Sequence record: OL780484.1 | Reading direction: 5' to 3' (one strand) | DNA from: Escherichia phage vB_EcoM-E33 | Length of the DNA: 64,000 bases | Shown: piece by piece, positions 18,797-45,048 of the stretch | Layout: the number at the start of each line of letters is the position of its first letter | Position numbering within the stretch: position 1 is the stretch's first letter | Program-made: the position numbers and the translations under genes | The notes under the pieces: generated by a model | The model's input: only the letters and a program-made list of their open reading frames with translations | Told to the model about the DNA's origin: nothing | Database searches by the model: none

Positions 18797-19620
18797 GTAT
18801 ATTTTCTTACATCAACGAGGCTACTGAAACTACAAAAGGTTCCAAGCCTACTCGTTCAGAACAACAATGGATAACTTTAGGCGTTGAATATGCCAACGCT
18901 AAGGCTAAAGGTGTTTCGGCTAAGAAATTCGCTGAAGATAAAGGCATCAAGTATTCTAGCTTTACATCTGCGATGTCTCGATACTCGAGTCGAATTAAAA
19001 CTGCTGTACAGGTTGAAAAACTTCAGAAGAAACCTGGCAATAAATTAACCAAAGCAGAACGTCAATTAATTTTGGTGAATAGTTTTAGAAAGAGTATTCG
19101 CGATAAGATTGCTAACGAAGGCGCTGCCGTAAACAATAAATCAGCTAAATGGTTTACAGAAACATTAAAGAAAGGAATTCGTGGACACCAGGTATCTAAA
19201 CCGTCTCCTGGTAAGCTTTATGCTTATATCTATGATGCCAAACATAAGGATACCCTACCATACTGGGACAAATATCCTTTAATAATTTATCTTGGGTTAG
19301 GTAAGCATAATTTAATGTACGGACTGAACTTACACTATATTCCACCTAAAGCACGTCAGCAATTTCTGGAAGAATTGCTGAAGCAATACGCGAGTACGCC
19401 TACCATTACGAACTCGACTAAATTAAAAATCGATTGGAGTAAGGTAAAAGGATTCGCTGGCGCCGACGTGATGATTAAGGCTTATATCCCTGGAAATATT
19501 AAGGGACCTTTAGTAGAGATAAAACCGTCTGATTGGGCTAATGTAATAGGATTACCACTTCAGCAATTTGTATCGAAAGGTAAGCGTTATTCAGCTCAGA
19601 AAGTTTGGAAGAAGGCATAA
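18784..19620 (+). CDS. 2: probable gp2 (DNA end protector), assigned by position
   Basis: 278 aa basic protein between gp4 and gp3, size close to T4 gp2; alternative start ATG 18793 overlaps the gp4 stop (ATGA); no motif recognised. Confidence 0.55.
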
Positions 19621-20270
19621 TGAATTACCAGAAAATATATTCTTCATTAATTACACGTGCTCAAGGACGAGCACTATCCTGTTATACCGAATCTCATCAT
19701 ATTTTACCTAGATGTATGGGTGGAGGTGATGAATCTACAAACTTAGTTGATTTAACTCCTGAAGAACATTATTTAGCACATCAACTATTAGTTAAAATGC
19801 ATCCAGGACATCCTGGTCTAACTTTTGCAGCTATGACAATGACTCAAGGCCCTCGTCGTTCTAATAAGCTTTACGGCTGGCTTAAACGTAAGCACTCTGA
19901 GAATATCACAGCAACCCAAACAGGAAAGGTTTATTATAATAATGGCAAGAAGTGTATTAAGCTGTTTCCGGGTGAACCGATTCCTGAAGGATTTGTAAAG
20001 GGACGAGGATGGAGTCCTACAAAAGGAACCACTCATGATAGGAATAATGGCCGTTTTGCCAATAAAGAACTCCAAGCGGAGCTTTCTAAACGGAGATGGG
20101 ATAAAGCCAGAAAGGAAACTTGTGAACAATTTGGTGTGGATACTATAGAAGAGGCCAAGGATATGGTTCGGGCATTTAAAGCTACATGCCACGAAAGATA
20201 CTGGATAAAACCAACTATAGCCAAATGGCCTTTTATGACACCAGTAAGACTACGTGAATTTATAAAATAA
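19620..20270 (+). CDS. HNH homing endonuclease (free-standing), copy 1
   Basis: YTESHHILPRCMGGGDESTNLVDLTPEEHYLAH is an HNH motif; start taken at ATG 19620 overlapping the gp2 stop (TAATG); ORF track start 19605. Confidence 0.8.
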   Translation: MNYQKIYSSLITRAQGRALSCYTESHHILPRCMGGGDESTNLVDLTPEEHYLAHQLLVKMHPGHPGLTFAAMTMTQGPRRSNKLYGWLKRKHSENITATQTGKVYYNNGKKCIKLFPGEPIPEGFVKGRGWSPTKGTTHDRNNGRFANKELQAELSKRRWDKARKETCEQFGVDTIEEAKDMVRAFKATCHERYWIKPTIAKWPFMTPVRLREFIK

Positions 20271-41840: not shown

Positions 41841-42038
41841 ATGTTATATGACCCGAGTGGTAATTCTGAAGATGGTATTATTGTCCTCTTGGCAGATGTT
41901 GAAGAATCCGACGATGACATCTTTGTTAAAGATTGGGAAGAAAAAGGTGGAATCACGCTCCAACAAGAAAATGATATGATTTGTCTGAATGCAAGCCAAG
42001 TTGAAGAGCTTTATAGTATTTTAAAACATAACCGTTGA
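41841..42038 (+). CDS. small acidic hypothetical protein
   Basis: ATG 41841 after ggcgaggaaactgta (MLYDPSGN...); ORF-track start 41766. Confidence 0.5.
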   Translation: MLYDPSGNSEDGIIVLLADVEESDDDIFVKDWEEKGGITLQQENDMICLNASQVEELYSILKHNR

Positions 42039-42048
42039 GGAATAGAAA

Positions 42049-42609
42049 ATGATTATTGAAACAACTGAATTGTTTGGCGAACTGTCCGCTGAAGTAGTTA
42101 ATAACGCAATTGAGCTTTCACAAGAAGACGATAAAATCGTACTGACTATCGCTGATATTAAACCGCTTTATGATTTAATGGTTTTGGATAGACACGATTA
42201 TCTTAATGGTCGTGCTAGTGCTCCTATTGATATCAATGATGATATGTATGCCTATATCTATAAAAACGAAAACGGGTTTAATCTGGAAAATGGTATTGAA
42301 TGTCTGAGCATCAGCGATTCTGATAAATTCTTTGATTGTATTTTCAAACTGTTCCAGGAAGAATGTAAGCCGGAAGTTGAATGGAAAGTCCCAGGCCAAG
42401 ATGCTGTGATTCGTTCTAGTGAAACGTTTGAAGGCACTGAAGAGGAATTAGATTATAATACTGAACTGACTGTGCTTCAACATAACGGCCGTGATTTGCT
42501 ATCCTTGACCCAAAGACACGACGGTGAAAATGAAGTGGTATTTACTAAGGACGAGCTCAAAGCTTTAGTCTCTTATCTGAACTCTGTTATCCCAACTATG
42601 AACTCTTAA
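42049..42609 (+). CDS. acidic hypothetical protein
   Basis: 186 aa; SD gagga then ATG. Confidence 0.55.
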   Translation: MIIETTELFGELSAEVVNNAIELSQEDDKIVLTIADIKPLYDLMVLDRHDYLNGRASAPIDINDDMYAYIYKNENGFNLENGIECLSISDSDKFFDCIFKLFQEECKPEVEWKVPGQDAVIRSSETFEGTEEELDYNTELTVLQHNGRDLLSLTQRHDGENEVVFTKDELKALVSYLNSVIPTMNS

Positions 42610-42619
42610 GGAAAATATT

Positions 42620-43078
42620 ATGATTATCAATGCAAACTCTTGGCATGTTAAACTACATGACCGTTTTTATGCCAGTTATTCACGTCCGCGCTCATTATGC
42701 GCATACTTCTGGAAAATGGTTTGGGCGTGCTTTATATGTTCTGTGCTTGCAGGTAGTACTATTTTCGGCTTAACTGTTGCAGGTGCCGGTATATTGGAGC
42801 AGTTCTTTGTATTGAGTACTCCTGTTGGTTTAAGTTTAGGTTTTATTTTAGGACTGGTTACACTAGCTCTTATTCTAGCGGTAGCCGTTGGTATTGTGTA
42901 TTGTATAATGAATTTATGGTCCTGGTATGATTTACGTAAAGAAGAAAAGGAATGGCTACTAATTAAAGCTAAACGTGAAGGAAAGGAAATTAAAGAAAAT
43001 ATCGTTATTCAATATATCAAAGCTCGTAAATCTAAGGTCTGCCCTGTAATCCACTTCGAGAACAAAACAAACCCATAA
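42620..43078 (+). CDS. integral membrane protein
   Basis: Several hydrophobic helices (FWKMVWACFICSVLAGSTIFGLTVAG, PVGLSLGFILGLVTLALILAVAVGIVYCI). Confidence 0.55.
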   Translation: MIINANSWHVKLHDRFYASYSRPRSLCAYFWKMVWACFICSVLAGSTIFGLTVAGAGILEQFFVLSTPVGLSLGFILGLVTLALILAVAVGIVYCIMNLWSWYDLRKEEKEWLLIKAKREGKEIKENIVIQYIKARKSKVCPVIHFENKTNP

Positions 43079-43842
43079 TGAATTATACCAAGCTTTATGA
43101 TAGTCTAATCCAAAGAGGTAAACTTAGAGGATTAGACAAATCCAAATTAAATTTTTATACAGAGTCCCATCATATACTCCCATCATGTATTGGTGGGAGT
43201 GATGAACCTAATAATTTAGTTCTGTTGACAGCCAGAGAACATTTTATAGCACACTGGCTTCTAGCTAGAATTCATTCTGATTCTTCTGGACTAATTTATG
43301 CTTGGTGGTCGTTTTATAGCTTCGGTGAGGATTCTCTAGGAAGAAATCTTAAACTAACTTCTAGAGGATACCAATTAGTTAGAGAAAAATTTTCAGAAAT
43401 TCATTCAAATGCGATGAAAGAAATATGGAAGACTGAAGAGTATAGAAATAAACGTTCTATAACTATGAGTCTACCGGAAATAAAAGATAAAATGTCTGCC
43501 GCTCAAATAGAAGCTCAAAACCGTCCTGAAGTTAAAGAGAAAATTTCTAAAGCTATTAAAGAAGCATTTAAACGCCCTGATGTTAGAGAAAGGCATTCTA
43601 ATGCTGTTAAGAAATCTCTAAATAATCCGGAAACTAAAAAGAGGCAATCTGATGCTTCTAAAGCAAAGCAAAGAATAGGAAAACATTGGCAAGATTATGA
43701 TTTGCTTTATTCTTTATGGGTTAAATTAAATAGGCCTAAGCGTGGGGCTTTTGGTACTTATATTAGTAAATTAGGATATCCCAAATCTAACTACCAACGT
43801 TTAATTATGCAATTTATTGAAGACTATGAAAGAGGTGAATAA
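43078..43842 (+). CDS. HNH homing endonuclease (free-standing), copy 2
   Basis: YTESHHILPSCIGGSDEPNNLVLLTAREHFIAH HNH motif; N-terminal ~60 aa paralogous to the 19620 endonuclease; C-terminal repeats NRPEVKEKISKAIK / RPDVRERHSNAVKK / NPETKKRQSDASK. Confidence 0.8.
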   Translation: MNYTKLYDSLIQRGKLRGLDKSKLNFYTESHHILPSCIGGSDEPNNLVLLTAREHFIAHWLLARIHSDSSGLIYAWWSFYSFGEDSLGRNLKLTSRGYQLVREKFSEIHSNAMKEIWKTEEYRNKRSITMSLPEIKDKMSAAQIEAQNRPEVKEKISKAIKEAFKRPDVRERHSNAVKKSLNNPETKKRQSDASKAKQRIGKHWQDYDLLYSLWVKLNRPKRGAFGTYISKLGYPKSNYQRLIMQFIEDYERGE

Positions 43843-44852
43843 TGAGAACAGTTATGAAGGGATATTTTGGCTCCCACCTTTATGGAACAAGTACTCCGGA
43901 ATCTGATGTCGATTTTAAAGAAATCTTTGTTCCACATCCGCGTGATATTCTGTTAGGTACGGCTATGAACCATACCAACCTGAATACGAATAACACTGCT
44001 TCCAAAAACACTAAAGATGATGTTGACCACGAGCTTTACAGTCTGAAATATTTCTTTAAACTAGCGGCTGATGGCGAAACAGTTGCTTTGGATATGCTCC
44101 ACACTCCACCTGAACTGGTGGTTAAATCTGATTTACCTGATGTATGGAAATTTATCCAGGATAACCGTTCTCGGTTCTATACAACCAACATGAAAGCCTA
44201 TTTAGGGTACGTCCGTAAGCAAGCTTCTAAATATGGTGTTAAGGGTTCTCGTCTGGCTGCTCTGCGTGGTGTACTGGCAATCGTTAACCAGATTCCTGAA
44301 CAGTGGGTTGACTATCAAGAAGGAATCCCTGATAGACTTCGTCGTACTAAGGTAGAAGATATCAAACACAGACTCCCTGAAAATGAGTTCTGTGAATGGG
44401 TATTCCATAACCATGAGAAAACAGGCCCTCAAACGTTCTATACTGTTCTAGGACGTAAGTACCAAACTACTTTGTCTTTAATCGAGCTCAAGCAATCTCT
44501 GAATAAGCTCGATGCTGAATATGGTGAACGTGCCCGTAAAGCTGAAGCTAACGAAGGTATTGACTGGAAAGCTCTGAGCCATGCTTATCGGGCTGGGTAT
44601 CAATTGTTGGAAATCTACCAAACAGGCGACCTGGTATTCCCATTGCGCGAAGCCTCTATCATTAAGCTGATTAAGGCCGGTGAACTTCCATTTAAAGAGG
44701 TCCAAGAACTTCTTGAAGACACTGTTGATTTAGTCGAAGTACTGGCTATCCAGGCTCATAAGAACGGTATGCCTGCTAAGGTAGATATGAAGTTCTGGGA
44801 CAAGTTTGTTGAAGAGGTATACCTTGACAACCACAACTCTTATTATCGATAA
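43842..44852 (+). CDS. nucleotidyltransferase-fold protein (RNA-repair-associated family?)
   Basis: N-terminus KGYFGSHLYGTSTPESDVDF fits NTase G[SG]x9-13DhD; 336 aa; ATGA overlap with the HNH gene. Confidence 0.6.
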   Translation: MRTVMKGYFGSHLYGTSTPESDVDFKEIFVPHPRDILLGTAMNHTNLNTNNTASKNTKDDVDHELYSLKYFFKLAADGETVALDMLHTPPELVVKSDLPDVWKFIQDNRSRFYTTNMKAYLGYVRKQASKYGVKGSRLAALRGVLAIVNQIPEQWVDYQEGIPDRLRRTKVEDIKHRLPENEFCEWVFHNHEKTGPQTFYTVLGRKYQTTLSLIELKQSLNKLDAEYGERARKAEANEGIDWKALSHAYRAGYQLLEIYQTGDLVFPLREASIIKLIKAGELPFKEVQELLEDTVDLVEVLAIQAHKNGMPAKVDMKFWDKFVEEVYLDNHNSYYR

Positions 44853-44859
44853 CGAAGAA

Positions 44860-45048
44860 ATGAAGGTCTTTTTATCATATGGAAGACCCCATAAAACCCG
44901 ACGTTGGTATCTTGAAGCTGTCTGTAAAGAAACCGGACGTCGAGTCAATATCAAGTACGCATGCAAACCTACGCCTAAACAGACAAGACGATTTGTTAAC
45001 TGGGCTGTAAATGATATCCGCTTCTATAATTTTTGGAGCGCAATTTAG
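44860..45048 (+). CDS. small basic hypothetical protein
   Basis: ATG 44860 (MKVFLSYGRPHK...) just after the upstream stop; ORF-track start 44806. Confidence 0.45.
   Translation: MKVFLSYGRPHKTRRWYLEAVCKETGRRVNIKYACKPTPKQTRRFVNWAVNDIRFYNFWSAI

Follow-up and report, generated by a model that had tools for sequence, protein, structure and literature searches.

The gene examined in the present study is mobD of Escherichia phage vB_EcoM-E33 (OL780484.1), located in a stretch of 64,000 nucleotides that is hereafter called the window. This open reading frame (ORF) occupies 43078..43842 on the + strand, begins with ATG and encodes 254 amino acids (aa), exactly where the original prediction, made from the sequence alone, had placed a second HNH endonuclease with three DNA-binding-like repeats of roughly 17 aa. 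The product matches PHROG 655 'homing endonuclease' with an E-value of 6e-56, and its aa identity reaches 96.1% with a gene of TH40 and 95.7% with the annotated mobD of VR26. Compared with RB6 mobD, the identity is 79.8% over 99% of the length, and T4 MobD falls in the same range (about 79-80%). The slot directly 5' of nrdC.11 is common to the window gene and the copies in VR26, T4 and a20. This high identity, together with the T4 slot upstream of nrdC.11, marks the window ORF as the ortholog of phage T4 MobD in a conserved slot, an identity that the original prediction had missed despite its correct assignment to the HNH endonucleases. Thus, the locus is quite likely to hold an intact, probably active T4 MobD ortholog, that is, an HNH homing endonuclease encoded by a promoter-less cassette between a membrane-protein gene and nrdC.11 in a Dhakavirus-like T-even phage. 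The protein has a three-part architecture, with an HNH nuclease at residues 1-94, a divergent NUMOD3 array at residues 96-197 and a three-helix module at residues 198-254. The features of the gene are as follows, where AF2 denotes AlphaFold2 models and HMM a hidden Markov model.

43078..43842, + strand: mobD ORF, free-standing HNH homing endonuclease (PHROG 655, identities, T4 slot).
43078..43359, + strand: N-terminal nuclease domain, residues 1-94 (invariant columns, AF2, profile matches in the PDB, 53% identity to the paralog at 19620).
43159-43272, + strand: HNH beta-beta-alpha core, residues 28-65 (H31/H32, N46, H55/H59).
43363..43464, + strand: two degenerate NUMOD3-like units, residues 96-129 (Ser106 and Ser127; periodicity extending to residue 96; weak HMM matches; profile alignment to the I-TevI helix).
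43465..43668, + strand: four clean 17-aa units, residues 130-197 (z = 9.2 at lag 17; AF2 helices; domains found by the canonical-unit HMM).
43669..43839, + strand: C-terminal three-helix module, residues 198-254 (W-x2-YD-x-LY-x-LW ... GYP-x2-NY; AF2).

First, the HNH endonuclease reading is borne out by the PHROG 655 match, by the family profile and by the predicted structure. In an alignment of 53 family sequences, E29, H31, H32, P35, N46, H55 and H59 of MobD are invariant. The AF2 model of the whole protein, with a mean predicted local distance difference test score (pLDDT) of 91, has the architecture given above, and its beta-beta-alpha core consists of strands at residues 29-32 and 47-50 and a helix at residues 52-65, all with pLDDT >93. 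The MobD family profile matches HNH domains in the PDB, including those of a group II intron maturase (6me0, E 6e-6), McrA (E 0.003) and Cas8-HNH.

Second, the repeats of about 17 aa are real, but the count of three given by the original prediction is too low, as the array comprises four clean units and two degenerate ones; the three peptides originally quoted are located at residues 148-165, 166-182 and 183-198. The periodicity was assessed as BLOSUM62 autocorrelation compared with 3000 composition-preserving shuffles. At lag 17 the z-score is 7.2 for residues 147-197 (the three quoted units), 9.2 for residues 130-197 and 7.1 for residues 96-197, with a harmonic at lag 34, and none of the 3000 shuffles of any region reached the lag-17 value at any lag. 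A serine recurs at the conserved position of each unit (residues 106, 127, 140, 157, 174 and 191), and the clean units follow the pattern x-P-[ED]-[IVT]-[KR]-x-[KR]-[MIHQ]-S-x-A-x-K. In the AF2 model, each clean unit forms a 15-residue helix with a Pro-containing turn at its start, and the helices of the array (95-117, 120-131, 133-147, 150-164, 167-181 and 184-198) are separated by two-residue Pro turns.

In I-TevI and I-HmuI, NUMOD3 corresponds to the alpha-helix that lies in the minor groove; in I-TevI, H182, located just ahead of the helix, reads bases, and S191 contacts a phosphate (PMC2853131, PMC3664794). Several lines of evidence connect the MobD array with this motif. Full-length homologs with 35-39% identity (P0006, P0007, P0009, P0013, P0017 and P0041) score above the NUMOD3 gathering cut-off in the corresponding region, and the NUMOD3 scores of full-length homologs aligning over the repeat region range from 27 to 60 bits. 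The family profile aligns the repeats with the I-TevI NUMOD3 helix in 1i3j at residues H-S-D-I-T-K-S-K-I-S (E 0.008). In addition, a canonical-unit HMM, built from 34 canonical NUMOD3 units collected by regular expression from 23 relatives other than MobD, scores 19.0 bits on residues 96-200, compared with a maximum of 11.1 bits among 1000 shuffles (0/1000 reach the observed score). This model matches five of the six units, all in register on the same core positions, with domains at residues 136-142, 151-162 (13.7 bits) and 184-197 (9.6 bits) and weak matches at residues 102-107 and 119-125. The units retain the serine equivalent to S191 and the core [ED]-[TV]-[KR]-x-[KR]. An iterative HMM seeded by the five perfect 17-aa units of P0017 did not spread beyond P0017, because the model was too short. 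The MobD repeats are best described as a divergent, His-less and Pro-capped variant of NUMOD3.

Third, a separate conserved module follows the repeats, which the original description of the C-terminal half, although right about the repeats, had overlooked. AF2 predicts three helices with pLDDT 86-96. Pfam returned no family for this module at E <= 1, except for one member at E 0.19; the best match of a profile search against the PDB (E 0.5) is not significant, and no match to NUMOD1 or to a curated helix-turn-helix (HTH) family was found, the three-helix topology alone being HTH-like. A search of 1.84 billion proteins with a profile of the module recovers only 138 representatives, in which it is nearly always C-terminal and often present in two to three tandem copies (P0058, P0121 and other profile-search matches). 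Among 60 proteins with the module, NUMOD3 is present in 19 and HNH-type domains in 10, and nine matches to two GIY-YIG-type models (GIY-YIG and SegE) were observed; in phage genomes, the module occurs at several different endonuclease loci. The module is likely to bind DNA.

Several search results weigh against the architecture proposed herein. With Pfam HNH (PF01844), window MobD scores 14.1 bits, which is under the gathering cut-off of 21.4 bits. Pfam NUMOD3 (PF07460, cut-off 20.4 bits) gives no match at E <= 10 with the whole protein or with fragments 98-201 and 98-254. The G-x-x-H-S half of NUMOD3, including the base-contacting His (H182 in I-TevI), is not in the MobD units, in which the corresponding residues are N148-R149-P150, K165-R166-P167 and N182-N183-P184 ([NK]-[RN]-P). 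A Foldseek search of the PDB with the full AF2 model returned only non-significant HNH-domain matches and neither I-HmuI nor I-TevI, and the same search with the C-terminal module gave a best match of E 5.5, again without I-HmuI or I-TevI. Regarding the nuclease, the homologs P0005, P0006 and P0041 narrowly exceed the Pfam HNH gathering cut-off, and the PF01844 model is insensitive to the Mob subtype. Regarding the repeats, the suggestion of the original prediction that they are of the NUMOD kind fails in the direct domain search, but the homologs, the family profile and the canonical-unit HMM point to a divergent NUMOD3. Since the Pfam model stays below threshold and the His-Ser half is absent, we use the name NUMOD3-like rather than claim membership of the Pfam family.

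Scans of the whole protein and its fragments with Pfam and NCBIfam for NUMOD motifs produced only sub-threshold noise (GerD, THUMP and IscB-HNH), and the GerD match of residues 98-201 (window 43369-43680; E 0.002-0.02) was judged to be an artefact of K/E-rich helices. These weak matches to a helical GerD core might nevertheless be taken to indicate that the 17-aa repeats are a helical spacer or an oligomerisation region, such as a coiled coil or a rope-like bundle, and not sequence-reading modules. In that case, the repeats would set the distance between nuclease and anchor, or would dimerise the HNH domains for a double-strand break, as in RB3 I-TevIII, which acts as a dimer (PMC2988022). The six near-contiguous 15-residue helices of the AF2 model, which are not short helices with extended linkers, would suit such a role, as would the missing canonical His and the YkyA domain named in a GenBank label on a T4-type protein. 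However, Pro-containing turns break the helix at intervals of 17 residues, a feature that a long coiled coil does not allow, and the conserved positions fit NUMOD3 ([ED]-[TV]-[KR]-x-[KR]-[IM]-S) and not a heptad. Moreover, bona fide NUMOD3 stands at the same place in homologs, and the family profile aligns the array to the DNA-contacting I-TevI helix. We consider a spacer role unlikely, and the array is treated below as NUMOD3-like.

The label just mentioned, 'HNHc and YkyA domain containing', is carried by one GenBank record and is an annotation pitfall. In RefSeq, T4 mobD.4 (L004 175-357) and related small ORFs bear the name 'molybdopterin-guanine dinucleotide biosynthesis protein MobD'. This name has evidently come in through confusion with the gene symbol mobD and has spread to many T-even records, and nrdC.11 is likewise often labelled 'thioredoxin' in T-even phage records.

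The original prediction had also compared MobD with a second enzyme in the window, and a tblastn search finds only these two Mob-type HNH genes there.

19620..20270, + strand: paralogous Mob-type HNH homing endonuclease, located after the gp2 DNA end protector gene and without a NUMOD3-like array.

Both proteins belong to PHROG 655, and the N-terminal region is indeed common to them, with 40 of the 75 residues at positions 1-75 identical (53%, E 2e-24). The alignment finds nothing past residue 75, consistent with the earlier view that the C-terminal halves differ, and in the paralog the canonical-unit HMM scores 0.8 bits and the C-terminal module is not shared. Like mobD, the paralog is present or absent among close relatives: among near-identical Dhakaviruses, it is in QL01, LQ5 and C6 and not in LHE83, PSD2002, IME540 and WG01, which means that the window contains a further homing-endonuclease cassette, independent of mobD. 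That the two paralogs have different target sites, as was also proposed, is a reasonable expectation: their C-terminal regions are unrelated, and the case is strengthened by their separate, independently occupied slots (gp2-adjacent versus nrdC.11-adjacent).

Comparison of the locus with related phages revealed an inserted cassette in a mosaic backbone, with the following features around mobD.

42049-42609: MobD.1/y05I-like protein, upstream neighbour.
42620..43078, + strand: small membrane-protein gene (PHROG 944), directly upstream of mobD; its allele is 96.7% identical to that of the mobD-less Dhakavirus C6.
43067..43841, + strand: cassette inserted relative to mobD-less relatives, approximately 775 bp replacing 2 bp (junction alignments with IME281; homology with C6 stops at 43066).
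43831..43838, + strand: Shine-Dalgarno-like AGAGGTGA for nrdC.11, read from the sequence, inside the last mobD codons.
43842..44852, + strand: nrdC.11-like nucleotidyltransferase of the RlaP family (Pfam RlaP, E 1.8e-11; PHROG 388, E 5e-132), annotated as NrdC.11 in VR26, T4 and IME281.
43842..43910, + strand: donor-like re-coded 5' end of nrdC.11, with a synonymous cluster at 43859-43874; proposed as a co-conversion tract and as part of the site that MobD would target.

Precise empty sites are present in mobD-less relatives. A megablast search with positions 42000-45000 retrieved 386 phage records that match the flanks, and only three of these, one from TH40 and two from VR26, contain mobD; the best matches to the backbone, IME281, QL01, LQ5 and IME540, cover 74% of the query, that is, everything but the mobD ORF. 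In Tequatrovirus, mobD is present in 47 of the 593 records that match the T4 region. The gene is sporadic in four genera, namely Tequatrovirus, Mosigvirus, Gaprivervirus and the Dhakavirus-like window, and always stands beside nrdC.11. To the left of 42630 and to the right of 43911, the window is 94-100% identical to Dhakavirus IME281 and approximately 45-90% identical to VR26/TH40, whereas mobD itself has 92.5-95% nucleotide identity to TH40/VR26. Nucleotides 1-69 of nrdC.11 match TH40/VR26 as well; over the first 70 nt, TH40 differs from the window at 2 nt and IME281 at 10 positions, the switch to IME281-like sequence occurs between 43911 and 43943, and past 43911 the window is 100% IME281-like. 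Thus, mobD is a presence/absence polymorphism among otherwise collinear genomes and, judged by these alignments, forms a donor-like patch in a Dhakavirus backbone, and the cassette of approximately 775 bp and about 70 nt of nrdC.11 look like the contribution of a Gaprivervirus donor. A long left-hand co-conversion tract was considered as the reason why the membrane-protein gene differs from that of IME281, and it was rejected because the allele is 96.7% identical to that of C6, which has no mobD.

Two side observations concern the same neighbourhood. In the window, VR26 and a20, mobD is preceded by the membrane-protein gene, which T4 does not have, and in mobD-less Tequatroviruses such as RB14 (L009 1162-1623) this gene is annotated as 'replaces mobD'. 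The T4 cassette therefore appears to have displaced the membrane-protein gene and not to have been inserted beside it. Inside nrdC.11, positions 44631-44730 of the window are 52-54% identical to VR26/TH40 and 100% identical to IME281, and in C6, dhaeg and RZ short segments at approximately nt 480-510 and 750-930 of the gene are about 50% identical between lineages, which suggests further patches of mosaic recombination.

The signals for expression are sparse. Stop and start codons overlap as TAATG at both ends of mobD (43076-43080 and 43840-43844), and neither a late promoter (TATAAATA) nor a convincing sigma-70 promoter was found near the gene. No Shine-Dalgarno site comparable to that of nrdC.11 is seen in the sequence ahead of mobD. 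A promoter-less cassette with weak coupled translation has been described for several free-standing endonucleases of T4 (PMC2988022), and mobD fits this description.

The absence of an own promoter or ribosome-binding site, along with the sub-threshold Pfam HNH score, might indicate that this copy is inactive and decaying and persists only because its deletion would harm nrdC.11 translation. T4 carries the defunct endonuclease I-TevIII (PMC2988022), and a 3' remnant of mobD is fused to another ORF in phage G8. However, the window ORF is full-length, every HNH residue that is invariant in the 53 relatives is present, and the ratio of non-synonymous to synonymous substitution rates (dN/dS) is 0.04-0.12 in each of the three MobD regions compared with TH40, VR26 and T4. 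Such values against both close and distant orthologs indicate that selection maintains the function of mobD and that the gene is not in decay, and the repeats noted by the original prediction are kept in orthologs under the same selection. Recent transfer into a new backbone would also imply recent activity. We regard decay as very improbable.

Strong purifying selection across four genera might instead reflect domestication, in which mobD would be a nuclease or DNA-binding protein kept for the benefit of the phage and not currently mobile, with roles in the exclusion of co-infecting phages, in attack on satellites or as a repressor of the nrdC.11 operon, comparable to the auto-repression by I-TevI. 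The identical slot in all cases and the provision of the nrdC.11 Shine-Dalgarno site by the 3' end of mobD are in line with this explanation, and I-TevI also serves as a repressor (PMC2988022). Against it, mobD is sporadic and found in only a small fraction of the genomes that are otherwise collinear, its phylogeny disagrees with that of the flanks, and its GC content at third codon positions is deviant (0.20, compared with 0.31-0.39 in the neighbours). These signatures fit horizontal spread and not a vertically kept host function, and marker exclusion would be a by-product of homing in any case. Domestication thus seems improbable, if less so than decay. The low third-position GC content and the low dN/dS together suggest that the mobD element is active and horizontally moved.

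The free-standing endonucleases of T4 cut a neighbouring conserved gene (PMC2988022), and nrdC.11, the downstream host gene, is likely to be the target gene of MobD. Differences between genomes with and without mobD accumulate at its start. In the first 36 nt, the window and IME281 differ by 8 mismatches (background 2.4%, P 2e-6), T4 and RB14 by 7 (P 3e-4) and a20 and RB69 by 6 (P 2e-3). The differences at codons 3-11 are almost all synonymous and include switches of Ser codons between AGY and TCN, and from nt 22 of nrdC.11 onward, Tequatroviruses without mobD show 100% identity to T4. The start of the gene in seven mobD-less phages of four genera has ATGAAARGCTAYTTYGGTAGY in common. The most straightforward interpretation is a recognition site that extends over the insertion point and the beginning of nrdC.11 and would be destroyed in mobD-bearing genomes by both insertion and re-coding.

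Not all genomes follow this pattern, and the exceptions weaken the case for a site of this kind. The mobD-less contigs L013 (phage G8) and L014 carry a T4-type or a20-type 5' allele of nrdC.11, so a strict association between this allele and mobD was not upheld. The mobD-less contig L015 has AAG at codon 6, and the change from AAA to AAG at this codon was accordingly rejected as a universal marker of immunity. In view of these three contigs, the mismatch cluster could be a mere scar of co-conversion or recombination and not a determinant of immunity; it may have arisen from gain and loss of the cassette. Furthermore, a 2010 review of T4 mobile elements lists the activity of MobD as 'ND' and its target as 'unknown' (PMC2988022). 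In phage G8 (vB_EcoM_G8, IMG/VR 2974742932), a 66-aa ORF directly upstream of nrdC.11 (L013 13168-13368, - strand) ends in ...WNNENCS, which is the C-terminus of T4 MobD, and nrdC.11 begins with the T4-type re-coded allele although mobD is absent. This locus looks like the footprint of mobD loss or replacement. A scan of IMG/VR for the window-type nrdC.11 allele gave only VR26 itself.

Herein, we propose the following mechanism for MobD. The protein would bind its site, which would be extended and asymmetric, as a monomer, with the NUMOD3-like helices lying in or along the minor groove, by analogy with I-TevI and I-HmuI. The conserved serine of each repeat might contact a phosphate, the residues of the Pro turn might stand in for the base-reading His, and the C-terminal module might anchor the far end of the site, while the HNH domain would nick one strand, as MobA and MobE do. 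The target would be the mobD-less junction, composed of the 3' end of the upstream gene and roughly 20-35 nt at the start of nrdC.11 (consensus ...ATGAAARGCTAYTTYGGTAGY...). Genomes with mobD would be immune, with the site split by the insertion and re-coded by synonymous changes, and the cassette and a short flank would be copied when the nick or break is repaired with a co-infecting mobD-bearing genome as template. Termination-reinitiation at TAATG, with no Shine-Dalgarno site for mobD itself, would keep expression low, and the 3' end of mobD would provide such a site for nrdC.11. The combined proposal, of a perhaps undescribed tail (His-less NUMOD3 plus an unnamed module of roughly 50 aa that is shuffled among HNH and GIY-YIG homing endonucleases) and a target made of the junction and 20-35 nt of nrdC.11, is put forward tentatively, as somewhat short of an even chance. 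If the target is as proposed, the window bears the trace of recent homing across genera, from a Gaprivervirus-like donor to a Dhakavirus-like recipient, with a co-conversion tract of approximately 70 nt, and if the role of the tail is as proposed, the C-terminal module is a further, unnamed nuclease-associated DNA-binding module.

This kind of element is already known, as mobD has long been annotated in T4 and a 95%-identical copy is annotated in VR26. What is mildly new is limited to how the tail is described, to the C-terminal module without a curated family, to the candidate target and to the transfer between genera; these points carry little weight for biology at large and are of use to specialists in homing endonucleases. 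For these, the re-coded 5' end of nrdC.11 is a concrete candidate substrate for MobD, and the array illustrates how NUMOD3 might drift beneath detection by Pfam while its core is kept. The C-terminal module, uncurated and shuffled, could join domain databases and the toolbox of modular DNA binders, and the mosaic provides evidence, at the level of sequence, for a mob gene crossing a genus boundary among T-even phages.

Among known systems, T4 MobD is close to the window copy, with about 79-80% aa identity, 78.7% nucleotide identity over the full length, the slot before nrdC.11 and the same three-part architecture. In T4, mobD is located between mobD.1 and nrdC.11, whereas the window gene follows a membrane-protein gene and belongs to the VR26/TH40 allele group (92.5-95% nucleotide identity). 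The window protein ends five residues before T4 MobD, and the overlap with nrdC.11 is 1 nt compared with 17 in T4. The window copy also stands in a Dhakavirus-like backbone, and no such Dhakavirus-like record in the phage collection has mobD. I-TevI, I-BmoI and I-HmuI share with MobD a beads-on-a-string organization, in which a nuclease is followed by tandem helical units with an E-T-K-x-K-I-S core and a terminal helical module, and the repeat serine of MobD corresponds to the phosphate-contacting S191 of I-TevI. Unlike theirs, the MobD units are 17 aa long, contiguous and start with [RNL]-P instead of G-x-x-H-S; moreover, MobD has no Zn finger, and its terminal module is neither NUMOD1 nor a Pfam HTH. 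In the Mob proteins, an HNH domain is joined to C-terminal regions that are distinct and presumably bind DNA, mobD being a free-standing HNH gene, and MobE and MobA insert beside the conserved gene that they target and nick one strand (PMC2988022). MobD has in common with T4 MobE and MobA the HNH subtype MNYxKIY...YTExHHIxP...GGxD...N...EH...H and a free-standing, polycistronic arrangement, and it differs from them in its C-terminal region, its slot and its target, which is nrdB for MobE, gene 39 for MobA and, as we propose, the start of nrdC.11 for MobD.

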